Shown: positions 15,374-36,503 of the stretch, in pieces | Numbering within the stretch: the stretch's first letter is position 1 | How the letters are laid out: every line of letters starts with the position of its first letter | From: a virus | IMG/VR virus record: IMGVR_UViG_3300042691_005581 | Span: 1-64,000 of that record | Length of the DNA: 64,000 nt | Strand: one strand, 5' to 3' | Made by a program: the position numbers and the translations under genes | Notes under the pieces: model-generated | What the model saw: only the letters and a program-made list of their open reading frames with translations | What the model was told of the DNA's origin: nothing | Database searches by the model: none

Positions 15374-16579
15374 ATGCCATATACAATATATAAAACAAAC
15401 GGTGTGCGATTAACTACTATTGAAGATGGTAAATTAAATTTAGCAACCGATTTACAATTAGTAGGTAAAAACTATGCTGGATATGGACAGATAGTAAATG
15501 ATAACTTAGTTAAGTTGTTAGAAAATTTTGCTAATGGAACTGCACCCTCAAAGGCATTGACTGGTCAAATATGGTATGATACTCTTAACAAAAAATTAAA
15601 AGTTTATAACGGATCTAAATGGAGTCAAGTTTTACCTACCACTATTTCGGCAATTCGTCCAGTTGATTTATCTGATAATGAATTTTGGTTTGATTCTGTA
15701 AACTTTAAATTATATTTAAAACATGGTGATACTTTTAGATTAATAGGTCCTAGCACTACAACGTCTGGCCCAGGCTCGGGATCTACACTAACTACTACAG
15801 AAGTAGTATCTAGCACAGAAGTTACTTACGACATTATTAAATTAGTAATTGGTGAAGCAACAGTTGCAATTATTTCTGATCAAACTTTTGATGTTAAAAC
15901 AACTGATCCTACTTATGCAGAAACTACTAAAATAGTTAAGGGGATAACGTTAATAGGAGCAGATCCGTTAACTGGAGTTTCTTCAGACAGCGAATCATTT
16001 TTTTGGGGAACTGCTGCCGATTCTGAAAAGTTAGCCGGGCGCCCCTCTACTGATTTTTTATTAGCTTCTGCAATTAACGATATTGCAAGTGAGATCACTC
16101 AACTAACTGATATTACATTTATAAGTTCGGGATCACCTTCTACACCTGGCATTATTGAAGGTGCTTGGTCATTAAGTTCTGGATCTACATTAAACGCAAC
16201 CTATGCCGACTTGGCAGAAAGATACGAAGCAGATGCAGTATACGAACCTGGCACTGTTTTGGTATTAGGTGGCAATAAGGAAGTAACAATTAGTCAATCT
16301 TTAGGTGATACTGCTGTTGCTGGAGTTGTTAGCACTGCACCTGCATTCAAACTGAATTCTTCTGCAGGCAATGACGAAACGCATCCCTATATTGCATTGA
16401 CTGGTAGAATACCTTGTAAGGTAATCGGCGAAATTAAAAAGGGAGACCTGCTTATTACCAGTAATACTCCGGGAGTTGCTACATCAGGTAAGAAGCAGGC
16501 TGATCCAAACTCTGTAATTGGAAGAGCAATGCAAGATTACTCATCCAATGAAATTGGACTAATAGAAATTAAAGTTTAA
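15374..16579 (+). CDS. Tail fibre protein, paralog 4, with C-terminal intramolecular chaperone (peptidase G2-like)
   Basis: Shared N-terminal domain; YADLAERY...PGTV...VAGVVST.PA...IALTGRIPCKV.G.IKKGDLL. Confidence 0.75.
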   Translation: MPYTIYKTNGVRLTTIEDGKLNLATDLQLVGKNYAGYGQIVNDNLVKLLENFANGTAPSKALTGQIWYDTLNKKLKVYNGSKWSQVLPTTISAIRPVDLSDNEFWFDSVNFKLYLKHGDTFRLIGPSTTTSGPGSGSTLTTTEVVSSTEVTYDIIKLVIGEATVAIISDQTFDVKTTDPTYAETTKIVKGITLIGADPLTGVSSDSESFFWGTAADSEKLAGRPSTDFLLASAINDIASEITQLTDITFISSGSPSTPGIIEGAWSLSSGSTLNATYADLAERYEADAVYEPGTVLVLGGNKEVTISQSLGDTAVAGVVSTAPAFKLNSSAGNDETHPYIALTGRIPCKVIGEIKKGDLLITSNTPGVATSGKKQADPNSVIGRAMQDYSSNEIGLIEIKV

Positions 16580-17460
16580 ACAGCCATGTCTGCCTTAATT
16601 GGCTCGTGACTTTGATAATTTTCTAATGTAATATCGGACATTTCGAAGTGTGTGATAACATCGATATCGTCAGTTAATTTAAGTTCGGCCAACGGCAAGG
16701 GCTTTCTAGATAGTTGCTCTTTTACTTGCTCTACGTGATTTTCGTAGATGTGCGCATCTCCAACAGCAATAATTAATTCACCAACTTCTAAATTGCATAC
16801 TTGTGCAACCATATGAGTGAATAATGCATAAGATGCAATATTAAAAGGCATGCCAAGAAACATATCTGCACTACGCTGATACATTTGGCAACTTAGTTTA
16901 CCGTTGCTAACATAAAATTGAGCCATCATATGACAGGGCGGCAAAGCCATCATGTCTAGTTCTCCGGGATTCCATGCTGAAATAATATGTCTTCGGCTGT
17001 AAGGATCTTCCTTAATTCCGTTAATTAATTCAATCAACTGATCGTGATTTTGTAATACAACTTTGTTAATACGTACCAAAGGTTTACGCCATTTGCGCCA
17101 TTGAACTCCATAAATTCTACCTAGATCGCCGGCGTGTCGCTGAAGTCGTTTTTCTACCCAATAAGGTGCAGTTGCATTGTCTGACCAAATTGTTTTCTTG
17201 TCAGTGTAACGTTCACCGTGTAAAATTTCTCTCAAACGATTCTCATCACCACTGCCTTCGATGAACCAAAGTAATTCAGATACTACTGCCTTCCATGCGA
17301 GTTTTTTAGTAGTAACGGCCGGAAATCCAGCCGCTAAATCAAAACGCATTTGCACTCCAAATTTACTGATAGTTCCTACACCTGTACGATCTGGCCGGTG
17401 CTCTCCGGATTCTAAAATATCTTTTAGTGCATTTAGATAAGCGTGTTCTGGATGTTTCAT
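16576..17460 (-). CDS. thyA: Thymidylate synthase
   Basis: DRTGVGT, ELLWF, MALPPCH, YQRSADMFLGMPFNIASY, GDAHIYENH. Confidence 0.97.
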   Translation of the reverse strand: MKHPEHAYLNALKDILESGEHRPDRTGVGTISKFGVQMRFDLAAGFPAVTTKKLAWKAVVSELLWFIEGSGDENRLREILHGERYTDKKTIWSDNATAPYWVEKRLQRHAGDLGRIYGVQWRKWRKPLVRINKVVLQNHDQLIELINGIKEDPYSRRHIISAWNPGELDMMALPPCHMMAQFYVSNGKLSCQMYQRSADMFLGMPFNIASYALFTHMVAQVCNLEVGELIIAVGDAHIYENHVEQVKEQLSRKPLPLAELKLTDDIDVITHFEMSDITLENYQSHEPIKADMAV

Positions 17461-17933
17461 ATGTTATATTCTTTCATTGTATATCTTACTGGATCAGTAA
17501 CTGTAGCATGTTCTTTGACTTTTGTAAAGTTTTCTTTTACATAAGAAAGATCAAAAAACTTATCACACTCATAGTCGGCATCAATTTCTGTTACATAAAA
17601 TCTATCAATAATATCTAAGTATTGCTGATAAACGGCACTTCCGCCAATGATGAATATATCCTTATCGGGGTACTCTACTGAACAAAAATCTAATGCTTCT
17701 CCGCAGTCGCTAAACGTATGATCGCCTAATTCACGTTTTCTACTGATTACTACGTTGACACGATTGGGTAACGATTTACCTAAACTGTCATATGTAGTTG
17801 ATCCCATGATAACAACATTACCAGTAGTTAGTTGTCTAAACCATTGCATATCACCTTTAAGGTGAGGCCAGGGCATTTGACCATTAAATCCAATACCCTG
17901 ACTACGCTCTACTGCCACAATACAGTTGATCAT
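17457..17933 (-). CDS. folA: Dihydrofolate reductase
   Basis: GIGFNGQMPW, DMQWF, VIMGSTT, LPNRVNVV, IIGG; overlaps thyA. Confidence 0.95.
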   Translation of the reverse strand: MINCIVAVERSQGIGFNGQMPWPHLKGDMQWFRQLTTGNVVIMGSTTYDSLGKSLPNRVNVVISRKRELGDHTFSDCGEALDFCSVEYPDKDIFIIGGSAVYQQYLDIIDRFYVTEIDADYECDKFFDLSYVKENFTKVKEHATVTDPVRYTMKEYNI

Positions 17934-23987: not shown

Positions 23988-24436
23988 TAGCTGATCTCTG
24001 ATTTGCCTTGGCCTAAGTTGTTAACATTGATATAGCCCGAACCTCTCCGGTCCATATCAACTCCTGATTCAGCTCCGATATTCCGGCACAAATCTTGAAA
24101 CCATTTGTCGACAATTTCTTCATCTGTTTCACCGTAATAACCTGCTAGTCTTAATTCTACTATAAAAAGCTCGTTCCAGTCAAGTTCAAAAAATCCATTC
24201 TTAACATTGTCCTTATTGACTTTGGTATCCAATACAGCAATATAAGATTCATTGCGTTCGGTTGCTAACTCTTTTGGACTCAGTTTAGATAATCTTTCTG
24301 CTTCTGCGGCATCTGCAATTACTTTGGCAGCTCTTTCAGTAGCTTCCTGAAGTTTTTTTTCTGCTTCGACAGTAGCCTGCTCTAGTTTATCAATTCCGAA
24401 TATTTTTTTAATAAATTTTTTCATCATGTACCCCAC
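23987..24436 (-). CDS. Hypothetical protein
   Basis: Coupled ORF; true start may be 24427 or 24424. Confidence 0.6.
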   Translation of the reverse strand: MGYMMKKFIKKIFGIDKLEQATVEAEKKLQEATERAAKVIADAAEAERLSKLSPKELATERNESYIAVLDTKVNKDNVKNGFFELDWNELFIVELRLAGYYGETDEEIVDKWFQDLCRNIGAESGVDMDRRGSGYINVNNLGQGKSEIS

Positions 24437-25284
24437 TCATTCTTAAACAATGGAACTTGTAAACGATCACTATATCGCAAGCCTGCTCGCATGGCCAAAT
24501 CTGCCACACGTCGATTGTTTAGGGAATAGACACTTTCTACTCCACCAACTGGCATTAGATATACATGACCTTTGAATCCGGCAGCACGATACGCACCGAT
24601 AGCACATTCAGCATCTGCAAAGTCTTGTTCAGTAGCAATAACAAATTTTAGATATACAGTGCCTACAGTTTCATAATTGCAAACAACATCTGGTTTGATA
24701 GCATCGTCCCACGGTTCTCCGGAACATGGAAGTTTGGCACTAACTGAGAATGTAACTTCTCTTTCTAGCTTATGGTCTTGATTTTGCCACATACCTAAAT
24801 ATGTTTTAAATTCTTTTGTTAGACGCATAGTGCCGTTGGTTTCAAATGTAATCTCTTTGAGACCTGCCATCTTTGGATTATTCAGAAGTTCTGGATAGGC
24901 TTTTTGCCAACCTAACAATGGCTCACCTCCAGTGATAACCAAGTGCTCATCCTTCCACTCACCGTGCGGAATAATTTCCATAATACGATCTGCAATAGCA
25001 TCAGTAGTCAGCATAGGACTTAGATCTTTAAATTCGGGCATCCAGCTGGCGTAGCTGTCACAACCTGTACTAACTAGTGGTAACATCTTGTAGTCTGCAT
25101 AGGGTGTAATCTTGTGAGCTTTTGCAATGTCTTCGGCTTCTGCACTCAATTCTCCGCGAGACATGCCAAACCCTTGACATTTAAAGTTACATCCAAATGT
25201 ACGTAAGAAGACGGAAGGTACTCCCATGTACCTTCCTTCACCTTGAATACTGTAAAAAAGTTCTGATATTTTAATTTTATTCAT
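24424..25284 (-). CDS. queE: 7-carboxy-7-deazaguanine synthase (radical SAM)
   Basis: ELFYSIQGEG..G.PSVFLR..GCNFKC...CDS (third Cys after an insertion), ITGGEPL, ETNGT, RLQVPLF. Confidence 0.9.
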   Translation of the reverse strand: MNKIKISELFYSIQGEGRYMGVPSVFLRTFGCNFKCQGFGMSRGELSAEAEDIAKAHKITPYADYKMLPLVSTGCDSYASWMPEFKDLSPMLTTDAIADRIMEIIPHGEWKDEHLVITGGEPLLGWQKAYPELLNNPKMAGLKEITFETNGTMRLTKEFKTYLGMWQNQDHKLEREVTFSVSAKLPCSGEPWDDAIKPDVVCNYETVGTVYLKFVIATEQDFADAECAIGAYRAAGFKGHVYLMPVGGVESVYSLNNRRVADLAMRAGLRYSDRLQVPLFKNEWGT

Positions 25285-25549
25285 AAATTCCTGACCATTG
25301 TTTTAATTTTTCGATCTTAGCCTGCTTGGCAGTGTTAAGACCTTCTTCTGTTATAATACTATAAGATTTTAACAGATCTACCATAGCAAGTACATCCCCA
25401 ATTTCACCTTCTAAGTGCTGTGCATTAGTCAACGGCTTACCGGGTTTAAAATTGTTTAAACCAAATCGGTGACATTTACTTACTGCTTGAATTACTTCTG
25501 CACATTCCTCACTGAGGATGTTCATTACTTCGTGTAGTTTATTATCCAT
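25277..25549 (-). CDS. MazG-like NTP pyrophosphohydrolase
   Basis: EECAEVIQAVSK and EGEIGDVL motifs. Confidence 0.8.
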   Translation of the reverse strand: MDNKLHEVMNILSEECAEVIQAVSKCHRFGLNNFKPGKPLTNAQHLEGEIGDVLAMVDLLKSYSIITEEGLNTAKQAKIEKLKQWSGIYE

Positions 25550-26003
25550 TATTTGCTCTTTCTGTTAGGTACGTTTCATTGTGTACCCATTTGTTGTTTA
25601 CTAGGAAACCCCATTCTCTACGTTGTGGACCAGGCATGAACATTGTCCAGCAGTCTGTTCCTTCTTTAAGCTCAACACGGTGATAGCTATTAGCAGGGCA
25701 AATACGGAAGTGCCCAGGACCACGCCAATGCCGTGTTTCACTGATCTTGGCACCTTGTGAATCAAAGTTAGGAGTCCATTCATAATAACCACCTTTAAGT
25801 ATTAGAGTAGCGTAAGGCCATGGATGATCATGTACATCATCTGGATCTGACTTAAGAAACTTGTGTAAGAATACATTGAATGGAAATCGCTTCCTATCTT
25901 TAAGAAAGAGATAGTAACGTTCTAAGTAAGGTTCGCTGTTCACACGATCCATTACAATACGTTTCCGATCTAGCAGTTCTAGAAGTTTAAGCAGAACCTT
26001 CAT
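25542..26003 (-). CDS. Cupin-fold protein
   Basis: LH.F..SD.D..HDHPW, GGYYE, YHRVEL metal-binding cupin pattern. Confidence 0.7.
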   Translation of the reverse strand: MKVLLKLLELLDRKRIVMDRVNSEPYLERYYLFLKDRKRFPFNVFLHKFLKSDPDDVHDHPWPYATLILKGGYYEWTPNFDSQGAKISETRHWRGPGHFRICPANSYHRVELKEGTDCWTMFMPGPQRREWGFLVNNKWVHNETYLTERANNG

Positions 26004-26250
26004 CTTTGATTGCTTTCTTTTTACGAGTGGTAGTTTTTGCGGGAATTGCGCTTTCCGCTTTTAGTATAGCAGCTCTGACGTCTCTTGTCAATGCTTCGTC
26101 GTCCCATTCTAATTCAGTGCGACCGTCCGGGTATGTAGTCACAGTTAAATGACTGCCCTTTTCCACTTTGGGCAGAATAATTTTAGCAGAACCTGTAGTT
26201 CCGGGCATGTCCAAAATTGCACTGTCTGATTTCTTTTTACGTGTTGCCAT
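25987..26250 (-). CDS. Small basic hypothetical protein
   Basis: AAGGA RBS; TRKKK at both ends. Confidence 0.6.
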   Translation of the reverse strand: MATRKKKSDSAILDMPGTTGSAKIILPKVEKGSHLTVTTYPDGRTELEWDDEALTRDVRAAILKAESAIPAKTTTRKKKAIKDEGSA

Positions 26251-26262
26251 TATTTTTCCTTT

Positions 26263-26766
26263 TTAAAAAGGCCATTGATTGCTAGGAGCAGGCCTTGATT
26301 TTAATTTAACATTTTCTTCGATTACAGTACCGTCGTCCTCACATAGATCTACTTGATACGGAGCATCGATTACTAGATATTCATCTTCGAGTTGCCAATC
26401 GTGCTCTGCATCAAATAACCAGGCAGCACCTGATCGTTCAAATTCTTCATTACCATCGCCTTCTAAATAACACCGCTTAATTTCTTCTTGTTCTTCTTCG
26501 CTAATGTCATCACTAAAATCGAACCAACAAGCATGTTGGTCATCTAATTCTGCACCCCAGCCGCAATCTGTTTTAGCATGGGCCTGCTCGTCTCCCTCGT
26601 AAGGCAAATTGCAGTCAAGTTCTTCTTCAACAAAGCCTTGTCCCCAACGATAGTGATCATCAATGTTAAACCAACTGATACTACCGTCCGCATTTTCGCG
26701 GAACATTTCAATGTGCCAGCAAATGCTTTTCTTATGTAACGGTTTAATTAGATAAACTTTAGACAT
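26263..26766 (-). CDS. Acidic hypothetical protein (paralog of the next gene)
   Basis: D/E-rich; shares KKS, YR[WF], CW and DW.LED motifs with 26766-27269. Confidence 0.65.
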   Translation of the reverse strand: MSKVYLIKPLHKKSICWHIEMFRENADGSISWFNIDDHYRWGQGFVEEELDCNLPYEGDEQAHAKTDCGWGAELDDQHACWFDFSDDISEEEQEEIKRCYLEGDGNEEFERSGAAWLFDAEHDWQLEDEYLVIDAPYQVDLCEDDGTVIEENVKLKSRPAPSNQWPF

Positions 26767-27269
26767 TAGTCTTCCTTGAAATCACTTACATTGCCATCTT
26801 CGTCTGCAATGATAATACGAATATTAGTTTCGTCGTCTTCGTTGGTAACTTCAATTGGGCCCCAGATATAAACTTCGGTATCTTCCAAGTACCAATCACC
26901 TTCATCTTCTAACGCATAAGCACCGTTTTCGTCAATAAATTCTTGTAACTCTTCAATTTCGTTGTCATCTTCGATGCCTTCAATTTCTGTATCACCCCAG
27001 CAACCGCCATCGAACATATCGATCATTTCGGAACTGATAATGTTGTTAGCTTCGCATGAATACATATCTAAGCTGTCAGTTTTACCATCGCCGCCGGGTA
27101 CTTGAACAAACTCAAACTCTGGAAAATTATCGTCTTCAGTTTCTACTCTGAAAGTACAAAAACGGTATCCGTCTTTAACCGTAATTCGCCCTGTGCCGTT
27201 GCGTTGAACATAGTGTTCATGCTGTTCGCATGATTTTTTATAGTGTGTTTTAACAATCCAAAATGCCAT
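26766..27269 (-). CDS. Acidic hypothetical protein
   Basis: Probable start MAFWIV at 27269 (GAGG RBS) rather than 27353. Confidence 0.65.
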   Translation of the reverse strand: MAFWIVKTHYKKSCEQHEHYVQRNGTGRITVKDGYRFCTFRVETEDDNFPEFEFVQVPGGDGKTDSLDMYSCEANNIISSEMIDMFDGGCWGDTEIEGIEDDNEIEELQEFIDENGAYALEDEGDWYLEDTEVYIWGPIEVTNEDDETNIRIIIADEDGNVSDFKED

Positions 27270-27273
27270 AATA

Positions 27274-27972
27274 TTACCTCGGAGCAAAGTCTTGTTGCAA
27301 TTTAATGTTATCAAAGAATTCTTTCTTTGTACTTTGATCGTCTTTAAATGCACCTTTTAACACAGTAGTCTGTGTCAATGAACTATGTGCCATGATGCCG
27401 CGATTCTCACAGCATCCATGAACAGCCTGTACATAAACGCCTACGTCTGTTGCGTCTGTTGCTTTTTGGATTTCCCTAGCAATATCATTACAAAGTTCCT
27501 CCTGGAGAGTCCCTCGTCTTGCACACCACTGGGCGATTCGTGTGTACTTTGATAATCCAATAAGTTTGTTAGCAGCCAAAATGCCAATATAAGCAACGCC
27601 ACTAACGGGTTGGTGATGATGACTACACATACTGCGAAGCTCACTACGAACAACCAGCATACCTTCGTAGCGGTCCTGCGAATCATTTGGAAATGCTGTT
27701 GCGTCTGGTGCTTGTTCATATCTACCTGCCATTATTTCGTTGAAATACATTTTAGCCAACCGGCGTGCTGTACCTTTTGAGTTAGGATCATTTTCACGAT
27801 CAATTAGCAATGTATCTAGCACTTGTTCAAATGCCGCAGTTGCTTCGTCAATTAGTTCTGGCAACACATTGTCATCAACATATTCGCTAATGTTGTCTCC
27901 TGCCCAGAAACGTTTGTTATCGCTACGCATTCTATTACGAATTACCTGCGATAGGTTCTTACTTGTATCCAT
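27274..27972 (-). CDS. folE: GTP cyclohydrolase I
   Basis: SMCSHHHQP, IGLSKYTRI, ARR..LQE, HGCCENRG. Confidence 0.95.
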   Translation of the reverse strand: MDTSKNLSQVIRNRMRSDNKRFWAGDNISEYVDDNVLPELIDEATAAFEQVLDTLLIDRENDPNSKGTARRLAKMYFNEIMAGRYEQAPDATAFPNDSQDRYEGMLVVRSELRSMCSHHHQPVSGVAYIGILAANKLIGLSKYTRIAQWCARRGTLQEELCNDIAREIQKATDATDVGVYVQAVHGCCENRGIMAHSSLTQTTVLKGAFKDDQSTKKEFFDNIKLQQDFAPR

Positions 27973-28012
27973 TATAATTTCTCCGAGTTATTGTCGTGGA
28001 TGACTTTTGTAC

Positions 28013-28042
28013 ATTGTAACTTTATTTAGGCAAGTTGGTCAA
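28013..28042 (-). promoter_or_regulatory. Possible composite promoter for folE
   Basis: TTGACC-18-TACAAT with CTAAATA inside the spacer. Confidence 0.45.
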
Positions 28043-28828
28043 CCTCAGCAGTAAATTCTTTTTTACTGCGGAGTCTATTACGTTGAGATTTGCATCATGA
28101 CATTCTGCATATCTTATTAATGCAGACGTGTCTTTAGGAAAACACATACCGCCAAATCCTAATGCGCCATCTGGACCTGGGACTCTAAAATGGCTATTTC
28201 CTAGTCGAGGATCTAATTGCACTAATTCTGCAATTTTATTATAATCTTCTCCTGTGTTTTTGCACAATTGAAATATCTCATTCATAAACACAACTTTGGT
28301 AGCTAAGAAACAGTTAATTGTATATTTGGCAAAACTTGCCTGTGCCGGTGTGCAATATTTTATATCTGTTAATAGTTTTTGTCCCATTCTAATAAGACGT
28401 TCTGCTTCTCTAATCCAAGCAGGAATTGAACCACCGATGATGGCAAATTTGCCATGTGCATAATCTCTACTGGCATTTGCAGCCGTTAAAAATTCCGGAG
28501 CATGAACTAAATTTTTATGTTTTATTGATAAACGTTCGTATACGTTTGGAGGTGCAGTAGTTTTACTAATGATGACACCTGCAAAGTCTTTCAATTCTTC
28601 TAATACTGATTCGAGAATAGTAGTGTCGCAGCTTCCGTCATCTTTTGATGGGCTGGGTACACATACAAATACTCCCTCACAATCTTCTAAATCTTTATAG
28701 GTATTAGGCAGTCCTTTTGGAGGATCAACTAATACCAATTCGCAAAATAAATCATCTAAACTGTCACGAACAGCAGTACCTACAAATCCTAATCCTACGA
28801 TTCCTATTTTTGTTTTTTCTTTAAACAT
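28022..28828 (-). CDS. UDP-glucose/GDP-mannose dehydrogenase family protein (short form, no C-terminal domain)
   Basis: GIVGLGFVG, FVCVPSP, PEFL, AKY..N.FLATKV.FMNE, GFGGMCFPKD (catalytic Cys). Confidence 0.9.
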   Translation of the reverse strand: MFKEKTKIGIVGLGFVGTAVRDSLDDLFCELVLVDPPKGLPNTYKDLEDCEGVFVCVPSPSKDDGSCDTTILESVLEELKDFAGVIISKTTAPPNVYERLSIKHKNLVHAPEFLTAANASRDYAHGKFAIIGGSIPAWIREAERLIRMGQKLLTDIKYCTPAQASFAKYTINCFLATKVVFMNEIFQLCKNTGEDYNKIAELVQLDPRLGNSHFRVPGPDGALGFGGMCFPKDTSALIRYAECHDANLNVIDSAVKKNLLLRLTNLPK

Positions 28829-29904
28829 TATTTTAAATTCTCCAATAATTTATTTGCACTAAAGAATCGTTCAGTTAGATCGGCAACTTGTTTGCGAATA
28901 GTAGGAACCCTGCTATGATAATTGTCCATGTGTTGCATAATAGCAAAACATAGATTAGGCCTATGTTCTTCATATGCTGCAAACGATTCAGTCCATTTAC
29001 TAGGATACTTAAAAGTATCATAATACATTTCAGTATAACTTAGTCTGTCCGGCACCATAGGAATAGCATCTACTAACGCACCTTCGTAGCAACTAATGCC
29101 CAAAGTTTCTTGTAGATTAGCACTAAACACTAACTTAGCTTCGCCTAGCAAATTATGATATTCATTTTTAGTCAGTTGTTGATCCTGACAAACAACAAAT
29201 TCATACTGTGGCAAATGTTCTTTTAGATTGCGGAAGATCTCAACTTGTTTCTCTGGAGCAATACGATGCGGGAACAGAATAAGATCACGCTTAGGCATGT
29301 TCTTGTATGCTGTCAAAGTATTGTCCATATACTCCATAGGCCATCCTGTTCGTACAATATCACCATTAGCCATATAGCGAATACGACCTGTTCGAGCATC
29401 GACTTTTAATAAATTTTCTAGAAACAAATTGATATGAAAGTCTGTAGCAAAGTAGTTGTGATCAATAGCATGGAAGAAGCTAGCCTCGGCATTACGTACC
29501 CAAGGAGCATCCCCGATAAGACGTCCTAGGAAGTCTTGGGGATCATAACTGCCAGCATGCCAAAGAGCGTGGATAGTTACAGGAATTCCGAGAAGCCCGG
29601 CCATGTATTTGAGATTGATGATACCAGGGTGCCAAGCATCAGTGAATACAAAATGATCACCTGGGCAAACGGCTCCGTTGCAAAATAGCCTACCCATGTG
29701 TTCAACCTGTGCTGCCTTATATATGTTGGTACCGCCAAAATTAAGGAAAGCACCAGGCGTAGTGGCAGCAGGAATATCTGTAGGGCCAGAGATAATTTGA
29801 ACATTGTGTCCTGCCTTTTTAAGTAGAGAAGGAACGTGAAGTTTCCACTCACCTGTATAGCGAGTGGAAACAGCCTCTAAATCAATTAGAAAAACGTTCG
29901 CCAT
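28828..29904 (-). CDS. GT-B (GT4-like) glycosyltransferase resembling the GTDC1/QTMAN-DUF3524 family
   Basis: ILFPHRIAPEKQ and EY..LL.EA..VFSA..QETLGIS.YEG...AIP.VPDRLSY.E; probable start MANVFL at 29904. Confidence 0.8.
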   Translation of the reverse strand: MANVFLIDLEAVSTRYTGEWKLHVPSLLKKAGHNVQIISGPTDIPAATTPGAFLNFGGTNIYKAAQVEHMGRLFCNGAVCPGDHFVFTDAWHPGIINLKYMAGLLGIPVTIHALWHAGSYDPQDFLGRLIGDAPWVRNAEASFFHAIDHNYFATDFHINLFLENLLKVDARTGRIRYMANGDIVRTGWPMEYMDNTLTAYKNMPKRDLILFPHRIAPEKQVEIFRNLKEHLPQYEFVVCQDQQLTKNEYHNLLGEAKLVFSANLQETLGISCYEGALVDAIPMVPDRLSYTEMYYDTFKYPSKWTESFAAYEEHRPNLCFAIMQHMDNYHSRVPTIRKQVADLTERFFSANKLLENLK

Positions 29905-30124
29905 TGTTTCGATTTTCGTAGCGTGGGTTCTTACCCTTGTATCCTTCACGCGGCTTACCACGATTTGAAAAATACCGATACTCTTGAGAGCGATATAAGT
30001 CTGCAGGATTAAAATCTAATAGATTAAATCGGCAGTGGTCGAGCCATGCTTCTAAGTCGTCGAAGATTTTAGATACTTCGGGTTTCATGCGGAGAGTTTT
30101 TTGAATATAGGCAGGTTGTGCCAT
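29882..30124 (-). CDS. Small hypothetical protein
   Basis: AAGGA RBS. Confidence 0.6.
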   Translation of the reverse strand: MAQPAYIQKTLRMKPEVSKIFDDLEAWLDHCRFNLLDFNPADLYRSQEYRYFSNRGKPREGYKGKNPRYENRNNGERFSN

Positions 30125-30133
30125 GTTTTTTCC

Positions 30134-30508
30134 TTAATTGGAAGTTGTTGATAAAGTTGGAATATACTCTACAATACCATCTGATTCGCCGTCTTCGGAG
30201 ACTACAATCTCGTAAGATCGATTAGTTCCGTATGAGGGAATTAAATGGTTCTGCAAAATATCTGTTGCTATCATTTCGCAGGATTTATGATTTTGATTAC
30301 CTGCTTTGATAAAATCTTGTAATGCCCACTTGACAAGGAAGAATTCTAATTCTCTATCAAGATGAGTGACTGAAATTTTTACTTCAACTTTGAACATGTG
30401 ACGATGTTCGTTTTCTAAAAACTGAATACGAGGATCAATTGATCCTGCGTTCGGATAAAAGTGAAATCCTTGAAATTCAGTACGAATTTTAATATATGTA
30501 TTTGTCAT
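30134..30508 (-). CDS. QueD-like T-fold protein with LxxxHRHxF motif (DpdL-like)
   Basis: F.GFH, LENEHRHMF, SCEMIA, VSEDGE; lacks the CxxxHGH motif of canonical QueD. Confidence 0.7.
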   Translation of the reverse strand: MTNTYIKIRTEFQGFHFYPNAGSIDPRIQFLENEHRHMFKVEVKISVTHLDRELEFFLVKWALQDFIKAGNQNHKSCEMIATDILQNHLIPSYGTNRSYEIVVSEDGESDGIVEYIPTLSTTSN

Positions 30509-31023
30509 TTGATAATCTTATCGTTTTTATATTGTGACCAGTCTGTAAAATTTTTACGATCCATTAGTGTGTGCAAACTGTGACTCCACACACCAGGGTT
30601 AGTTGCATTAAAATCTTTGTCGTCAATTTTAATCATCGTATTATAATTCCAAAGTTTTACATATGGAATAGGCACACGAATTTGAGGAATAAAATTTGAA
30701 TGTTCGTTTAGACTGCCATCGTGAAATTCTTCCACTGCACTTAGTGGAATGTCAAGACTGCATAGATAACCTTTTTCTAGGAAGAATTCGATCATATCTT
30801 CCCAGGCCTTCCAACCGTCGTAATCATTGAAGGCAGGATTGAAGCTGTGATTTGCACCAAAGAAAATATGCTCGCAACCTTGCAAGTTTATAGCAATAGT
30901 TTCTACAGGTTGAACACCTACTACAAACAGAGTTTTGAGTCCGTATGCAGGAGTATGTTCAATTTCGGTGCCAGTAAAGAATATCACTTCTTCTTTAATA
31001 CCAGTATCATAATCTCGTTTCAT
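30505..31023 (-). CDS. Conserved hypothetical protein of the deazaguanine cluster
   Basis: Lies between the dpdA-like and QueD-like genes; has its own promoter. Confidence 0.65.
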   Translation of the reverse strand: MKRDYDTGIKEEVIFFTGTEIEHTPAYGLKTLFVVGVQPVETIAINLQGCEHIFFGANHSFNPAFNDYDGWKAWEDMIEFFLEKGYLCSLDIPLSAVEEFHDGSLNEHSNFIPQIRVPIPYVKLWNYNTMIKIDDKDFNATNPGVWSHSLHTLMDRKNFTDWSQYKNDKIIK

Positions 31024-31029
31024 ATGTTA

Positions 31030-31058
31030 ACTATAGCAGACTTTATATTAGATGTCAA
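31030..31058 (-). promoter_or_regulatory. Sigma70-type promoter, predicted leaderless transcript
   Basis: TTGACA-17-TATAGT; the A of the ATG is 7 nt downstream (31023); no RBS. Confidence 0.65.
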
Positions 31059-32679
31059 TACTTTTTTCTAATGCACGTAGCTCGTCATCGTCCGGATTTT
31101 CTAAATCGATTTCTGCAGATTTGGTAACCGTTTCGATTTCAAACAGTCCATTGAAAGTATTTTGGGCAGGTCCACCTTGCAAACGAGATCCTTCCAAACT
31201 GCGTAAAAATGGGCCAGCATCGTCGATAATGGCAAATGCTTCTTCTTTGGATTTAGTATTAAATAGATCTTCGATAAAAGAACTAAAATACAAAATGTTA
31301 CGTGGAACCCAATCACTGTACTCGTCGCTCATATCGCTAGCTTTGACCTTCTTCCAATGTTTCCAAGTTAACTTATCTTTAGTCTTTGCAATTTCAATGT
31401 CCATTAACTGTTGAGCACGTTGTACAGCAACAATATGACATTCTACATTGTGACCCATCATTAATGCATAGGCAAAACTATCCCAAGATGTTTTATTAGG
31501 AATCTTACCTAGTTTATTAAGTCTAGGCACAACATGATAGTGTTCTGTATTCAAGTGATCAAACTTAGCACCATTTAACTCTGCATCAGTTTTGCGTTTG
31601 CCTAAATCATAATAGGCAATGTCTGCCATTGTTAAGCGTCTGCCGATTGACGATTCGAATGGGAATGGAATGTCGCTTCCTGCAAGTGCTTTGTTGTCTG
31701 GGGCCTTGTCCATAATAACACTCCACCTTTTTGGCGTGTGGACTGCGTTTGTGTAGACAAGTCCGTGCGCTGTTGCGATGAACGGTGAGGCGCAGTCAAA
31801 AGATATGGTAAGCTCTTCATTGATATGTTTCCTAATTTGTCTTTGAATTAACGTTAAGTAACAACTCCAGTCAAGTTGCGCTGTACCCAAGAAGTGGATC
31901 CAGTTTTTGCCCTTCAGCAAACCATCTTCTCTAAGCGTCATCATACGCTTGAGAGTAATATCCATCTTGCACATGTTAGCACCACCAAAGGCCCAACCTT
32001 CTGCTTCACGCCCTGCATACTTGCCTTTAGGGTCGCTAAATTCTTTTACACCTGCATACCACTTTTCAGCAGTGTCCCAATCACCGCCTTGAAGAACGTT
32101 AAGCCATTTAGTATGACCTAAACGATTCATTAGGAAGTAATCGTTATTGAATCGTGTCTTGTCTAGACAGTCTTCAAATGTTTTCAATCCAGTCTTAGGA
32201 CTGTGAATGTGATCACATGCCCAAGTAGGCACGTCTAGCATCATTGACCAATCAGCAGTTAGTTCTAACCACTCAAGAATCTTTTGACGAGTTTTAGTAG
32301 CTTCTTTGCCTTCAAAGTCGAGCCAGTCAAACTTAAGAACGCCCTTACCAATTTGGTATCCGCCGGAGTCTCCCAGAATCATTGTATTCCCGCGATCACG
32401 TTGTTGGATCATTGACTCCTGCGTCATACTCTTTTGTAAGTCTAACTGTGCGTGACCCGCAGAGTACAGACCATACTTATATGTGAAATATCCTTCTTCA
32501 GGATTTAGAAAGTTCATACCTTCAATGCCACGATCAAATCCTGCTGGAATTCGATCGTCAGAAATAAACTTTTCAAGCCTTTGTTTAGCGATGTATGTAC
32601 TATAGAAACTACTAATTGCTGGCAAATACACAGCATAGTCTTTCTGTAGTGGTGTTAGGTTAAGTTGTTGTTTGCTCAT
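31048..32679 (-). CDS. dpdA: DpdA/TGT-family 7-deazaguanine transglycosylase, probably DNA-acting
   Basis: TGT barrel motifs GDSGGYQ, MMLDVP, NVLQG, GWAFGG, HFLG, SFDCASP; clustered with folE and queE; no CxCxxC Zn site of bacterial tRNA TGT. Confidence 0.8.
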   Translation of the reverse strand: MSKQQLNLTPLQKDYAVYLPAISSFYSTYIAKQRLEKFISDDRIPAGFDRGIEGMNFLNPEEGYFTYKYGLYSAGHAQLDLQKSMTQESMIQQRDRGNTMILGDSGGYQIGKGVLKFDWLDFEGKEATKTRQKILEWLELTADWSMMLDVPTWACDHIHSPKTGLKTFEDCLDKTRFNNDYFLMNRLGHTKWLNVLQGGDWDTAEKWYAGVKEFSDPKGKYAGREAEGWAFGGANMCKMDITLKRMMTLREDGLLKGKNWIHFLGTAQLDWSCYLTLIQRQIRKHINEELTISFDCASPFIATAHGLVYTNAVHTPKRWSVIMDKAPDNKALAGSDIPFPFESSIGRRLTMADIAYYDLGKRKTDAELNGAKFDHLNTEHYHVVPRLNKLGKIPNKTSWDSFAYALMMGHNVECHIVAVQRAQQLMDIEIAKTKDKLTWKHWKKVKASDMSDEYSDWVPRNILYFSSFIEDLFNTKSKEEAFAIIDDAGPFLRSLEGSRLQGGPAQNTFNGLFEIETVTKSAEIDLENPDDDELRALEKSIDI

Positions 32680-33833: not shown

Positions 33834-36503
33834 TTATTCGAATGTAAAAAGAGAACCGAATGTGTTGGTCTGAGTTGTGGAATCTAAATCCCATTCTAAC
33901 ACACCGATTAAATTATCAATTTTGTTATTGATAATAGTTGCCTCCATCTCTGCGTGGTTAAATGGTAATTCTTGAAACCATTTAGGCAATCGTAATTCAT
34001 CGACTGGATATGCTACTGAAGTGTATCCTAACGGATTTTCTTTTACCTTACAAACAATAACTTTCATGCCGTCGACAATACCCATCGAGTATTTGTCACC
34101 ATTCATGCGTTTTAAGGTATTCCAGTTAATAGCTGCTCGAACGTGTCCGGGCATGTTTGCTTTGCCAGCTTTTACTTCCTTGGCTTGATATTCAGCAATG
34201 TTGTTGGCACGTTTTGGACTTCCTTTTTCCCATCCTGGCCGGGCCTTAAATTCAGTTCGGAATTCGCTAATACGGTCTAGAATTTCTTTTTCTTGAGCAC
34301 CATTAAGCACCTTAGTTAGAATTTCTGTTAAGAATTCTTGCATAAATTCTGGAGTATCTGAACGCTTCAAATCTAATCCCATAGCCTTGATCTTGCCCGG
34401 TTTGCCATCTAAGTCCTGACGTTTTCCTTCCTTGTCATAGTAAAGAATTGCGTATCTTTTCTTAGTCATGTAGATACCTTTGATTGCTACAAATTCTCTA
34501 CCAGCTTTGATAACTTCTCCTCGACTTTTAGGACAGTGAAATGAGTCCAACATAAATTGAGAAAATGTTCCGTTAACTTCATTAGCGATAGAGTCATATA
34601 GTTGAACAACGGTATCTTTGGTCCAAGGAATTTCTCCCTTATCGATTTCTTTCCTTAAGGAAGTATAAGCACTAAAATATGCAGAGTCAGTGTCACCGTA
34701 GATAATAGCCTTACCTACATGATCATATTCTCCAGTAATTACTTCGTTAATTTTTGAAGCCATGTGTCTAGCAATTGCACGACCGGTAAGAGTGGTAGAT
34801 TGACCAATACGGTTATCGAAGAAGCGGCATCCTGCATTAAGAATAGCACCATACAAACTGTTCAAGTTAATTTTCTTAACTAGCTGACGTTTGTCCCAGT
34901 ATTCTTCTTCAATTTTATTACCGGCAGTAATGGCTGCTTTAAGTTTTGCCTGCATCTCTTTACGCTCAGCATACCAACGTTTCAACAATCCTGGAATAAC
35001 ACCTTCGTGTTCGTGTGTGAAAATAGTACCGTTGGCACTGAGCATCCAGGGCTTGCCGCTGTTAAAAATTAACTCAAATATTTGAGCGCCACTCATTACA
35101 TCAGTTTCGCCGTTTTCCCAATCAATAATGATGTCGTGCGTCTTGTCTTGACTCATTACAAATTCATATTCGTTGGCTCCAAATTTGCCTTCCCATGCTG
35201 CTGCAAAACTATTTCCCTTGGCAATTTTAGTTTCAATTTCTGCTTTGGTATAGTCCTGACGCAACTGTCCAACAATAGTCTCTGGACCCATATTCAATGC
35301 ACGAATAACTGAAGGATACAAACTGTTAATGTCCATTGAGCCAATCCAATCATGCAGACCTTTTTTAGGATATGCAACATATGCACCTGCGGCTTGAGTA
35401 TCAACAAGGTCGTCCCTGTTCTTACGACTAGGAACAATCATTCCACGGTGATGTGCTTCATTTACAATGGCCTGCTCTGTAACTGCTACAGCACCCATAG
35501 TGGTCTGTAACAACACTGTACATTCATGTGCTAGTGTATTTGCTAGGTCAATAAATTTTAATTTATTATCTAGTTTATTCAGCAATGCAGTATCTTGTCT
35601 GTTGTATTCGATAAACTTTTTAAAATCATTGTTATACAATTGATCCAATGTGCCTTCGTAAACAGTTTTACTTTCGCCTACTTCCATTTCTCCAATGGCA
35701 TCCAATCGGTATGTGTGGCGTTCTTCATAGGTGTATTTGCGGTACAGCTCGAGACTGTCCAGATGAACACGACCAACCAAATCATAAGTAACAGCCGCTT
35801 TTCCATATTTTTCATACTCCCTTTTCTTAGGAAATTGATCCCATAGGCAAAATCTACGAGTATCTTCTTTGCTCAACACTTTAGTAACTCGATTGACAGT
35901 ATAAGGCATATCGAATCCTTCACTGTTCCAACCGCTTAAAATATCAGCATCTTGAATTAAGTTTAGAAATGTATCTAACATGTCTGCTTCGTTATCAAAC
36001 AGAATTGTGTTAGGAAAATCTTTAATTTGTTCCTGTGCCTGTTCCATAGTTAGTGTCTTGGGCGGAACTGCAAGACATACTAATGTGTCCAACCATTGTA
36101 GATGAACGGCAATGGCAGTAATTGGCATGAAGGCATCATCGGGTGATGCATATCCACGTTCTGGATCGAAGTCTACCTCAATATCCCAAAACGCTACGTT
36201 TAGTTTTGGAGGCTCTTTGCCTAGATAGTTTTCTTCTAATGTACGAAAGACTACGTTAATATCACTTTCGAACAGTCGTTGATTACTGTGGATTCTTTGT
36301 TCTTTTTGAAATTCTTTGTGGTTTTTACATACCACTTTTGACAGGCTTTCGCCGTGAATCGATCTATATTTTCCCTTAGGGTCAGGGTAGTAAAAAATAT
36401 ATCTTGCAGGGTACTCCTGATATATTCTTCCTTTTTTTGGATCCCGTTCGACAATCTTAATGACGTCGTTGTCTTTATTCCAAATGGCGTCGACATAACT
36501 CAT
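33834..36503 (-). CDS. Family B DNA polymerase with 3'-5' exonuclease
   Basis: WDIE, GWNSEGFDMPY, YNRQD, DINSLYPS, KINLNSLYG, YGDTDS, KKRY. Confidence 0.97.
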   Translation of the reverse strand: MSYVDAIWNKDNDVIKIVERDPKKGRIYQEYPARYIFYYPDPKGKYRSIHGESLSKVVCKNHKEFQKEQRIHSNQRLFESDINVVFRTLEENYLGKEPPKLNVAFWDIEVDFDPERGYASPDDAFMPITAIAVHLQWLDTLVCLAVPPKTLTMEQAQEQIKDFPNTILFDNEADMLDTFLNLIQDADILSGWNSEGFDMPYTVNRVTKVLSKEDTRRFCLWDQFPKKREYEKYGKAAVTYDLVGRVHLDSLELYRKYTYEERHTYRLDAIGEMEVGESKTVYEGTLDQLYNNDFKKFIEYNRQDTALLNKLDNKLKFIDLANTLAHECTVLLQTTMGAVAVTEQAIVNEAHHRGMIVPSRKNRDDLVDTQAAGAYVAYPKKGLHDWIGSMDINSLYPSVIRALNMGPETIVGQLRQDYTKAEIETKIAKGNSFAAAWEGKFGANEYEFVMSQDKTHDIIIDWENGETDVMSGAQIFELIFNSGKPWMLSANGTIFTHEHEGVIPGLLKRWYAERKEMQAKLKAAITAGNKIEEEYWDKRQLVKKINLNSLYGAILNAGCRFFDNRIGQSTTLTGRAIARHMASKINEVITGEYDHVGKAIIYGDTDSAYFSAYTSLRKEIDKGEIPWTKDTVVQLYDSIANEVNGTFSQFMLDSFHCPKSRGEVIKAGREFVAIKGIYMTKKRYAILYYDKEGKRQDLDGKPGKIKAMGLDLKRSDTPEFMQEFLTEILTKVLNGAQEKEILDRISEFRTEFKARPGWEKGSPKRANNIAEYQAKEVKAGKANMPGHVRAAINWNTLKRMNGDKYSMGIVDGMKVIVCKVKENPLGYTSVAYPVDELRLPKWFQELPFNHAEMEATIINNKIDNLIGVLEWDLDSTTQTNTFGSLFTFE

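Follow-up and report, generated by a model that had tools for sequence, protein, structure and literature searches.

What is a glycosyltransferase (GT) gene doing among genes with which a phage would make 7-deazaguanine and place it in its own DNA? The question is raised by a 64,000-nucleotide stretch (the window; positions 1 to 64,000 of IMG/VR record IMGVR_UViG_3300042691_005581) of an uncultured freshwater giant phage. The record is a fragment of 77 kb, or ~17% of the genome, and the absence of a gene from it is therefore weak evidence. The original prediction described a co-oriented run of deazaguanine genes beside a clamp and a polymerase, and every listed gene was found in its place, co-oriented and tightly packed on the minus strand (Table 1). 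FolE, QueE, the cupin and MazG were each recovered by Pfam or PHROG matches (several NCBIfam QueE models also match the QueE-like protein, with scores below their cut-offs), and the polymerase and clamp-like genes lie directly upstream, the former also in 59 of 80 related loci. The predicted lack of queC, queF and an amidotransferase extends to the whole 77-kb record, in which no QueC, QueF or GATase_7 match was detected. Two conserved genes of the run, p172 and the 80-aa ORF, have no family match in Pfam, PHROG or profile searches (nor, for p172, in the PDB), and p172 is similar to the product of the 132-aa gene that precedes dpdA in phage ACP17 (E 3e-10). A strong predicted promoter (TTGACA-17-TATAGT plus extended TG, 11/12 matches to consensus) precedes p172.

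Table 1. Features of the deazaguanine module and its upstream context (window coordinates)
Feature	Coordinates	Strand	Basis or remark
Family B DNA polymerase (PolB)	33834..36503	-	PF00136 + PF03104; context, upstream border of module
Sliding-clamp-like protein, 244 aa	33022..33756	-	phrog_12062; Phosso homologue annotated sliding clamp; context
DpdA-like DNA guanine transglycosylase, 543 aa	31048..32679	-	TGT fold
Sigma-70-like promoter match	31030..31058	-	Consensus match only; directly upstream of 172-aa gene
p172, conserved protein, 172 aa	30505..31023	-	38/38 complete loci
DpdL-type T-fold protein (QueD paralogue, proposed CDG decarboxylase), 124 aa	30134..30508	-	LENEHRHMF
Small conserved ORF, 80 aa	29882..30124	-	tblastn matches in 76/80 related and 36/38 complete loci
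GT4-type (GT-B) glycosyltransferase, 358 aa	28828..29904	-	Family PF00534, EX7E
Truncated NDP-sugar 6-dehydrogenase homologue, 268 aa	28022..28828	-	PF03721 + PF00984 only
GTP cyclohydrolase I (FolE)	27274..27972	-	PF01227 E 5e-40; phrog_2197
Cupin, 153 aa	25542..26003	-	HDHP...H motif; phrog_4786 'cysteine dioxygenase' E 6e-41
MazG-type nucleoside triphosphate pyrophosphohydrolase, 90 aa	25277..25549	-	PF03819, phrog_4856
QueE-like radical SAM enzyme (CDG synthase)	24424..25284	-	phrog_2076 E 1e-50

The T-fold gene, which had been taken as QueD-like, turned out to be a DpdL-type paralogue rather than QueD. Its motif is the DpdL signature LxxxHRHxF (described in PMC10516641), which is present in nearly all of ~150 neighbouring copies, and the protein shares 40% identity with DpdL of ACP17 and 30% with CGPG_00067 of Cellulophaga phage phiST. 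A canonical PTPS/QueD is encoded at 75584-75922 of the record, past the end of the window. Therefore, the cluster belongs to the known phiST-type pathway, in which a DpdL/DpdA3 system yields 2'-deoxy-7-deazaguanosine (dDG), measured in phiST DNA (Cui, Hutinet et al. 2023, PMC10516641).

The dpdA/TGT-like call was upheld by structure and by conserved catalytic motifs, although sequence searches of the 543-aa protein gave no Pfam, PHROG or PDB match. Its AlphaFold model (pLDDT 88.9) shows a TGT-fold barrel over approximately residues 9-400, followed by a C-terminal helical extension; the best 50 Foldseek matches are all tRNA-guanine transglycosylases (probability 1.0), VIA-align superposes the model on Thermotoga maritima TGT with Z 18.3 over 305 residues, and D104 (in GDSGGYQ) and D295 are invariant. 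The protein also aligns with ACP17 DpdA (hhalign 96%), and a homologue in Vibrio phage 2.275.O adjoins QueF and FolE.

The record thus resembles phiST in several respects: (i) both carry FolE, QueD, QueE and a DpdL paralogue with the signature motif, (ii) both have a divergent TGT-fold DpdA that is detectable only with profile or structure methods, and (iii) both have a MazG/dUTPase-type gene, lack QueC and place the module next to a DNA polymerase. They differ in that phiST DpdA3 has 259 aa and is weakly related to the protein described here (hhalign 59%), that phiST has no p172 homologue (profile comparison with CGPG_00066), and that neither the cupin nor the dehydrogenase found a match when the window proteins were compared by BLAST with a selection of proteins from the phiST cluster. 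Above all, a profile search of the whole genomes of phiST and three other DpdL phages found no GT, which marks the GT-bearing modules as a class distinct from the phiST-type DpdL phages.

That this gene encodes a GT-B glycosyltransferase, as originally predicted, was borne out at the level of its family. The window protein on its own falls below every Pfam threshold, and its fold model is poor (pLDDT 51); among 40 family members, 30 match PF00534 and 13 match PF20706, and the family profile matches the PDB glucosyltransferase 8xsg at 2e-7 with the R/K and EX7E regions aligned, which identifies a GT4-type enzyme. The GT keeps its nucleotide-sugar-binding residues, with R233, K238 and E285-x7-E293 (EX7E) invariant. 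Its reading frame is open from GTG 29961, which would give 377 aa, the likely true start being ATG 29904. Homologues occur in more than 8000 metagenome clusters at ~80% identity.

The survey across genomes ties this GT firmly to DpdA, so that the prediction of a GT working in deazaguanine DNA modification holds to the extent that synteny makes the GT a functional part of the module. Each of the 38 complete loci of the window's phage group carries the full set of GT, DpdL and DpdA. Among 80 more divergent viral loci (GT 35-49% identical to that of ACP17), DpdL is adjacent in 77 and DpdA likewise; four of the six missing calls lie at contig ends, and L149 and L151 showed no DpdA in the downstream region. 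The DpdA-GT-DpdL core is common to six cultured-phage lineages: PA5oct (Wroclawvirus), ACP17, Phosso, BUDD, BCSR5 and BUCT-ZZ01. GT identity is 36-51% for the first three and 24-28% for BUDD and BCSR5, and the GT of BUCT-ZZ01 is found by profile only (hhalign 99.6%). PA5oct and Phosso also have PolB, clamp and FEN nuclease in the same order as here, whereas the order within the module differs: 132aa-DpdA-GT-DpdL-QueE in ACP17, DpdA-GT-DpdL in PA5oct, DpdL-GT-x-FolE in Phosso (where a DpdA homologue lies elsewhere in the genome, beside primase and helicase), GT-DpdA-DpdL-QueE in BUDD and DpdA-DpdL-GT in BUCT-ZZ01. In bacterial genomes, the GT adjoins DpdA in most of 28 loci. Some of these pairs have neither DpdL nor synthesis genes nearby and occur in hosts without QueC; therefore, the GT may not be specific for 7-deazaguanine as its acceptor.

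This distribution bears on whether the GT has anything to do with deazaguanine. GT4 enzymes act mostly on envelope glycans, many homologues carry the automatic JGI name 'glycosyltransferase involved in cell wall biosynthesis', and the window GT has the lack of a significant Pfam match already mentioned, all of which would suit an enzyme that rides in an early replication operon while acting on something else, such as a glycan of the host envelope or a protein of the phage. However, more than 150 loci, drawn from bacterial islands as well as from at least six phage lineages that diverged deeply, have the GT beside or near DpdA/DpdL in spite of shuffled gene order, and no family member was seen outside this context save on truncated contigs and in one 29%-identical Paenibacillus match. 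We consider an unrelated target quite improbable.

From the gene identities, folds, family membership and co-occurrence, we infer the following route. FolE, QueD (43 kb away in the same record) and QueE would convert GTP to 7-carboxy-7-deazaguanine (CDG), the carboxyl of which would most likely be removed by the DpdL paralogue to give 7-deazaguanine. The TGT-fold DpdA would swap this base for guanine in phage DNA, and the GT4-type enzyme would add a sugar from an NDP-sugar, with either the base flipped out of the DNA or the not yet inserted free base as acceptor. The end product would be a bulky sugar-bearing purine, with the DNA shielded from nucleases. That the locus is a phiST-type DNA-replacement module with an integral sugar transferase, leading to sugar-decorated 7-deazaguanine in DNA, is a reading to which we give roughly even credence. 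No account of a glycosylated deazaguanine in DNA emerged from our literature search, and the sugar-bearing purine that a GT among DpdA/DpdL genes predicts would be novel to that literature.

Because the pathway is of the phiST dDG type, the base would leave it with no obvious hydroxyl for a sugar, and an N- or C-glycoside, or an unrecognized hydroxylation, would therefore be needed. By analogy, the exocyclic N2 may be one precedented acceptor position, as HuiG glycosylates N2 of the 7-deazaguanine base in huimycin/dapiramicin biosynthesis (PMC7439116). The likeness is that of a FolE-QueD-QueE-type pathway joined to a GT that adds a sugar at N2, and clusters related to that of huimycin encode GT4-type N-terminal domains (PF13439). 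In contrast to the phage module, huimycin biosynthesis yields a soluble metabolite in actinomycetes, builds on preQ0 with QueC present, includes O6-methylation and involves neither DpdA nor DNA.

The gene neighborhood alone fits a DNA-borne sugar and a soluble intermediate alike. The phage DNA might hold plain dDG as in phiST, the GT glycosylating a soluble deazapurine, perhaps a metabolite akin to huimycin, perhaps a short-lived intermediate in protected or activated form, so that the sugar never stays in DNA. The huimycin GT does work on a free base, purine phosphoribosyltransferases in several clusters (L134, L019 and BUCT-ZZ01) place base- or nucleotide-level chemistry nearby, and heterologous DpdA plus DpdL alone in Escherichia coli gave no dDG, for which the authors suspected missing enzymes (PMC10516641). 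However, phiST reaches complete dDG without a GT, which is thus not needed for dDG, and the GT is tied to the DNA-acting DpdA, including at loci that lack DpdL and the synthesis genes. Moreover, the DNA of PA5oct, reported to contain a hypermodified G of unidentified structure, resists five restriction enzymes in vitro (PMC12191111), a broad nuclease resistance that seems to go beyond what we would expect of plain deazaguanine. We found nothing published on the PA5oct GT. On this evidence, plain dDG with a soluble GT target appears unlikely, and a sugar borne by deazaguanine in DNA is the reading we prefer.

A GT4-class enzyme acting on a 7-deazaguanine derivative in nucleic acid has a counterpart in the queuosine-tRNA mannosyltransferase QTMAN/GTDC1. 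That enzyme differs in that it modifies the cyclopentenediol which queuosine carries in tRNA, and without QueC, QueF and QueA no queuosine can be produced here. PF12038, the QTMAN N-terminal family, matched none of the 40 phage GT family members.

Phage GT-B enzymes that decorate a non-canonical base with a sugar from an NDP-sugar are represented by the alpha- and beta-glucosyltransferases of T4, which modify hydroxymethylcytosine in DNA as armor against restriction. The T4 enzymes add the sugar to a hydroxymethyl group that the pyrimidine has received ahead of replication, whereas no hydroxymethylase was seen in the record and its GT is GT4-like with EX7E. To our knowledge, phage GT-B enzymes have no established route to DNA decoration other than through hydroxymethylated pyrimidines, and this GT could in principle act likewise, in T-even style, as a chance neighbor of the deazaguanine genes. 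We hold this to be extremely unlikely: the one member of the thymidylate synthase family encoded in the record passes the NCBI equivalog cut-offs for true thymidylate synthase and is paired with DHFR, and it is DpdA, rather than a pyrimidine pathway, that the GT accompanies.

As to the nature of the sugar, the original prediction was that the neighboring NDP-sugar dehydrogenase would make a UDP-uronic acid for the GT to attach to deazaguanine. The enzyme assignment stood in part. The NAD and central catalytic domains are present, with GxGxxG, the K/N pair and the cysteine of GGxCxxKD (in GFGGMCFPKD) retained, but the C-terminal UDP-sugar-binding domain is missing, and TIGR03026 is covered over positions 70-293 of 413. 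The domain is likewise missing from all of the ~31 copies found (657-816 nt). The retained catalytic residues, and the abutting of GT and dehydrogenase in the window (stop and start share base 28828), would fit the uronic-acid route, and a variant in which the truncated enzyme oxidizes a sugar already on DNA is imaginable. However, co-occurrence with the GT fails for this gene: among 38 complete loci it is present in 17 and absent from 21, lying between PolB and the clamp in 11 and next to the GT in just 3, and none was found at the examined GT/DpdA/DpdL loci of PA5oct, Phosso and ACP17. The dehydrogenase is optional and mobile, and uronic acid as the attached sugar is very unlikely.

Three genes, those for the truncated dehydrogenase, cupin and MazG, lie outside the core as accessories of particular lineages. 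The cupin, possibly a metal-dependent oxygenase, occurs in 36 of the 38 complete loci, and the loci of PA5oct, Phosso and ACP17 gave no match to it; MazG occurs in 8 of the 38. In the close relative L019, the module has no dehydrogenase and contains Gfo/Idh/MocA and Zn-ADH oxidoreductases; sugar tailoring varies around a constant GT.

Every gene between 36.5 and 23 kb lies on the minus strand, which bears out the co-oriented run described in the original prediction. Read from the 36.5-kb end, this run encodes a family B DNA polymerase (PolB), a clamp-like 244-aa protein, a 121-aa ORF, a 543-aa protein (DpdA), the 172-aa protein p172, a 124-aa protein (DpdL), an 80-aa ORF, a 377-aa protein (GT), a 268-aa dehydrogenase, FolE, three acidic or unknown ORFs, a cupin, MazG, QueE, a 149-aa protein, and a FEN/RNase H nuclease. 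Sigma-70-like near-consensus promoter matches (11 of 12, extended TG) before the cupin gene and before p172 suggest at least two transcription units inside the module. QueC, QueF, and class-II amidotransferase genes, already reported missing from the window, were not found in the whole 77,359-bp record, the completeness of which is estimated at 17%. A 20-sequence profile of p172 had no match in the PDB, and direct comparison showed p172 to be unrelated to CGPG_00066 of the Cellulophaga phage phiST and to a 143-aa protein of the Xanthomonas phage BUDD; its one lead from a language-model look-up (Atlas), to a saccharopine-dehydrogenase C-terminus, was weak (0.91, 141 features).

Positions of features in the window, in the wider record, and in related loci (L-numbers are locus handles, followed by positions within the locus)
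Feature	Position	Strand	Remark
DpdA	31048..32679	minus	
p172	30505..31023	minus	
DpdL	30134..30508	minus	
GT	28828-29961	minus	likeliest start ATG 29904; 358 aa, matching the database copy
Dehydrogenase	28022..28828	minus	
Promoter match before cupin	26063-26091		
Promoter match before p172	31030-31058		
Two very acidic proteins between FolE and cupin	26263-27353	minus	167 and 195 aa; no family match
Thymidylate synthase beside dihydrofolate reductase	16576-17933		
Canonical PTPS/QueD	record 75584-75922		beyond the window
QueD region	record 74254-75970 (L084:171-1887)		QueD of 175 aa, PTPS match
DpdL-domain protein, Vibrio phage Bakedbeans	L171:7218-8369		
DpdL-domain protein, Chryseobacterium phage MA9V-3	L172:7458-8339		
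Purine-type phosphoribosyltransferase	L134:4583-5089		
Purine-type phosphoribosyltransferase	L019:12122-12703		
Purine-type phosphoribosyltransferase	L169:3456-3917		
GT-DpdA pair, Pelagibacterium mangrovi	L186:3039-9032		

The 543-aa protein, originally called DpdA- or TGT-like, proved to be just that by its fold, its catalytic motifs, and its profile links to the DpdA proteins of the Acidovorax phage ACP17 and the T4-like cyanophage BUCT-ZZ01. It had no match in Pfam, PHROGs, NCBIfam, or the PDB, alone or as a 47-sequence profile, and PF01702 matched neither the protein, nor its 47 homologues, nor anything else in the record; the published DpdA3 and DpdA4 were likewise detected by HHpred only (PMC10516641). 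The first TGT lead came from Atlas, and the identity was settled by this lead and structure only. An AlphaFold model on the homologue alignment (pLDDT 88.9) has the TIM-barrel fold of the TGTs: the best 50 Foldseek matches were all tRNA-guanine transglycosylases (probability 1.0), and VIA-align against 2ash gave a Z of 18.3 and an rmsd of 4.5 Å over 305 residues. A search of 1.8 billion representative proteins returned 869 relatives. D104-S105-G106-G107, within the motif GDSGGYQ, and D295 are invariant in the 47 homologues, down to 28% identity, and both motifs line up with those of ACP17 and BUCT-ZZ01 DpdA; judging from them, D104 and D295 would correspond to Asp102 and Asp280 of TGT. Profile comparison linked the family to ACP17 DpdA at 96% and to BUCT-ZZ01 DpdA at 92%, and weakly (59%) to phiST DpdA3. 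In Vibrio phage 2.275.O, a homologue with 30% identity has QueF, FolE, and a queuosine biosynthesis gene as its neighbors. Base exchange in DNA by the window protein is predicted from its association with FolE, QueD, QueE, and DpdL.

The 124-aa protein had been described as QueD-like; its signature and its homology to phiST and ACP17 proteins identify it as DpdL instead. It carries FLENEHRHMF, fitting the LxxxHRHxF that marks DpdL in place of the CxxxHGH of QueD (Cui, Hutinet and colleagues, PMC10516641), and in a search of the whole phage collection, with which blastp agrees, it was 40% identical to ACP17 DpdL (E 1e-12) and 30% identical to phiST CGPG_00067 (E 3e-7). DpdL is the proposed 7-carboxy-7-deazaguanine (CDG) decarboxylase of phiST, in whose DNA every G is 2'-deoxy-7-deazaguanosine (dDG); this activity remains putative, and a published reconstitution failed (PMC10516641). 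Because the 124-aa protein is DpdL, QueD lies outside the window, and QueC, QueF, and an amidotransferase are missing, we assign the cluster by its gene content to the known phiST-type pathway (FolE, QueD, QueE, DpdL, and DpdA, with no QueC). In the canonical QueD beyond the window, CAMLHGY stands in the place of CxxxHGH, and immediately after this gene comes an FAD-dependent oxidoreductase (408 aa, D-amino-acid-oxidase type).

The GT on its own falls below every Pfam threshold, with a weak match to PF04577 only, and its glycosyltransferase identity comes from its family. An ACP17 protein, whose relatives carry PF00534, shares 36% identity with it, and among 40 family members (30-85% identity), 30 match PF00534 (Glycos_transf_1; best 5.5e-9), 16 match PF13524 (Glyco_trans_1_2), and 13 match PF20706 ("GT4 in conflict systems"); PF00534 membership thus applies to the family and not to the window protein taken alone. 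The family profile also matches the glucosyltransferase 8xsg (2e-7) across the conserved Arg/Lys and EX7E region. Since this match is joined by the invariance of R233, K238, E285, and E293 (donor-binding R/K and EX7E) in all 40 sequences, the GT looks like a working NDP-sugar transferase, and the glycosyltransferase call of the original prediction is upheld as a GT4-like family. A structural model from a shallow alignment (15 close homologues; pLDDT 50.9) is Rossmann-like in its N-terminal half only and is too poor for a fold search. A specific kinship with QTMAN/GTDC1, the queuosine-tRNA mannosyltransferase, found no support: at E <= 0.1, not one of the 40 sequences matched the QTMAN_N/DUF3524 domain (PF12038). 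Two other candidate relatives, the 370-aa DpdA neighbour in Vibrio phage 2.275.O and phiST CGPG_00072, were unrelated on comparison, and no fused GT forms were found among proteins of 714-2035 aa, which is weak evidence.

A synteny survey, proposed with the original prediction, was clearly positive for the GT. In 80 IMG/VR loci whose GT is 71-81% identical to that of the window, the order PolB, clamp, DpdA, p172, DpdL, 80-aa ORF, GT, further genes, FolE, cupin, QueE, and FEN recurs. Among the 38 of these that are complete, spanning PolB to QueE, the GT, DpdL, p172, and DpdA occur in 38 each, the cupin in 36, and FolE in 35. In a second scan, of 80 loci in the ACP17 branch (GT 35-49% identical to that of ACP17), 77 have DpdL next to the GT, and 77 have DpdA there. 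Of the six missing calls, four fall at contig ends, and at L149 and L151 no DpdA was detected downstream. Cultured phages carry the association in rearranged order: 132aa-DpdA-GT-DpdL-QueE in ACP17, DpdA-GT-DpdL in PA5oct and ten relatives, DpdL-GT-x-FolE in the 469-kb Sinorhizobium phage Phosso, and GT-DpdA-DpdL-QueE in BUDD. The module is also present in the Burkholderia phage BCSR5, and in BUCT-ZZ01 the GT is detectable by profile only (hhalign 99.6%). In a rival reading, the GT may serve an unrelated target. The module is a genuine variant of the phiST-type deazaguanine system, very widely distributed but unpublished, in which a sugar transferase is an integral part.

A profile search found the GT family absent from the whole genomes of four DpdL phages, phiST included, which is the only one of the four with measured chemistry. 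Since these four do without the GT, DpdL systems form, by gene content, two classes, with the GT marking the class to which phiST does not belong. In two GT-less phages, Bakedbeans and MA9V-3, DpdL forms the C-terminal domain of a longer protein (293-383 aa). Where the GT is present, one locus holds either of two DpdL subtypes (about 37% identical to each other) in phages that are otherwise close relatives, while the GT there stays 71-81% identical, which argues against an obligate GT-DpdL protein pair. In DpdL subtype, the window, L013, L079, and L121 stand against most of the related loci L004-L083; the window's subtype is 65% identical to that of BUCT-ZZ01, and the majority subtype resembles that of ACP17.

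In bacterial assemblies, the GT adjoins a DpdA homologue, in seven Magnetospirillum-type loci together with DpdL and QueD, and GT-DpdA neighbors were also found in Methylobacterium, Pelagibacterium, Devosia, Sulfitobacter, and others. No DpdL, FolE, QueD, or QueE lies near the Pelagibacterium, Devosia, and Sulfitobacter pairs, and a true QueC was not found in three hosts of such DpdL-less pairs. For these reasons the GT seems to go with the transglycosylase and not with DpdL, and to recognise some common feature of either the exchanged base or the resulting DNA. In an alternative reading, the GT may work on a soluble intermediate or metabolite, and the DNA would keep plain dDG. The DpdL-less pair may itself be a mobile two-gene DNA-modification cassette; that of Pelagibacterium mangrovi is beside a serine recombinase. 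Pairs lacking DpdL and synthesis genes were also observed in the alphaproteobacterial chromosomes of L185, L187, L190, L192, L193, and L201.

FolE, QueD, and QueE produce CDG, and DpdA enzymes swap guanine in DNA for a 7-deazaguanine. In the proposed pathway, DpdL would yield 7-deazaguanine, DpdA would insert it into DNA, and the GT would add a sugar. This scheme is weakest at the acceptor, as 7-deazaguanine has no hydroxyl; one precedent is the huimycin/dapiramicin family, in which a glycosyltransferase attaches a sugar to the exocyclic N2 of a 7-deazaguanine base (PMC7439116). The cluster is best read as a route to a deazaguanine that bears a sugar in DNA, and we hold this to be about evenly balanced between right and wrong. 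The GT may instead glycosylate a hydroxymethyl pyrimidine; however, the sole thymidylate-synthase-family gene is a true ThyA, above the NCBI equivalog cut-offs and paired with dihydrofolate reductase, which indicates ordinary dTMP synthesis, and no pyrimidine hydroxymethylase that would supply a T-even type acceptor was identified in the incomplete record. The 7-deazaguanine bases known from DNA, eight in number, are all small. To our knowledge, the known glycosylated DNA bases are all pyrimidines, and a glycosylated purine would be the first in any DNA.

If the deazapurine does carry a sugar, DNA bases would gain a new chemical class, and enzymologists a purine-directed DNA or base glycosyltransferase. 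Because this phage group alone holds >8000 GT protein clusters (at about 80% identity), lakes and oceans could harbor the base widely. Two observations on the therapeutic jumbo phage PA5oct would find an explanation as well: its "hypermodified G" and its unusually broad resistance to restriction and CRISPR nucleases. For PA5oct, a modified G has been inferred and QueE and PTPS genes noted, with the base left unnamed (PMC12191111), and a 2026 preprint reports high resistance in vivo to all CRISPR and restriction systems tested. Neither of these two PA5oct reports nor two key deazaguanine papers mention the GT, and our literature searches found no report of a glycosylated deazaguanine in DNA.

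The original assignment of the 268-aa protein to the NDP-sugar dehydrogenases stands for the NAD-binding and central domains (PF03721 and PF00984), with a Rossmann GxGxxG, ATKxxxxNE, GFGGMCFPKD, and the Lys, Asn, and Cys that are catalytic in UDP-glucose dehydrogenases, but not for the C-terminal UDP-sugar-binding domain, which is missing: of the 413 positions of the family model, the protein reaches only as far as 293, with folE within 50 nt, and all copies in related loci are equally short. In the survey, it occurred in 17 of the 38 complete loci, between PolB and the clamp in 11 and adjacent to the GT in only three, and no homologue was found at the PA5oct, Phosso, and ACP17 loci. On these grounds it is a poor fit as a supplier of UDP-uronate to the GT, and the uronic-acid detail of the original prediction is unlikely, though some modified form of it may apply: the truncated enzyme might oxidize the sugar after attachment. 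A second truncated version, 36-43% identical to that of the window, occupies the slot between PolB and the clamp in L008, L018, L028, L048, L049, L052, L059, L066, L071, L072, L074, and L078.

In place of the dehydrogenase, the close relative L019 has Gfo/Idh/MocA and Zn-ADH-type oxidoreductases, a phosphoribosyltransferase, a HIT protein, and a 2OG oxygenase, and L134, a T4-like representative, has a Zn-ADH and a phosphoribosyltransferase. Such a constant GT amid swappable sugar or redox enzymes would be expected if the sugar were diversified under selection. We entertain, somewhat short of an even chance, the broader possibility that many lineages, including very abundant freshwater and marine phages, carry in their DNA a sugar-bearing 7-deazaguanine made by a dedicated GT4-family enzyme and DpdA, and that close relatives vary the sugar by exchanging tailoring enzymes (in the window the truncated Ugd-like dehydrogenase, in relatives Gfo/Idh/MocA and Zn-ADH). 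The sugars on hmC differ among T-even phages, which such diversification would resemble. The purine-type phosphoribosyltransferases of L134, L019, and L169 might serve either (i) the salvage of guanine released by DpdA or (ii) deazaguanine nucleotide synthesis. The two acidic proteins between FolE and the cupin are mobile or missing in relatives, occurring in 9 and 5 of the 38 complete loci.
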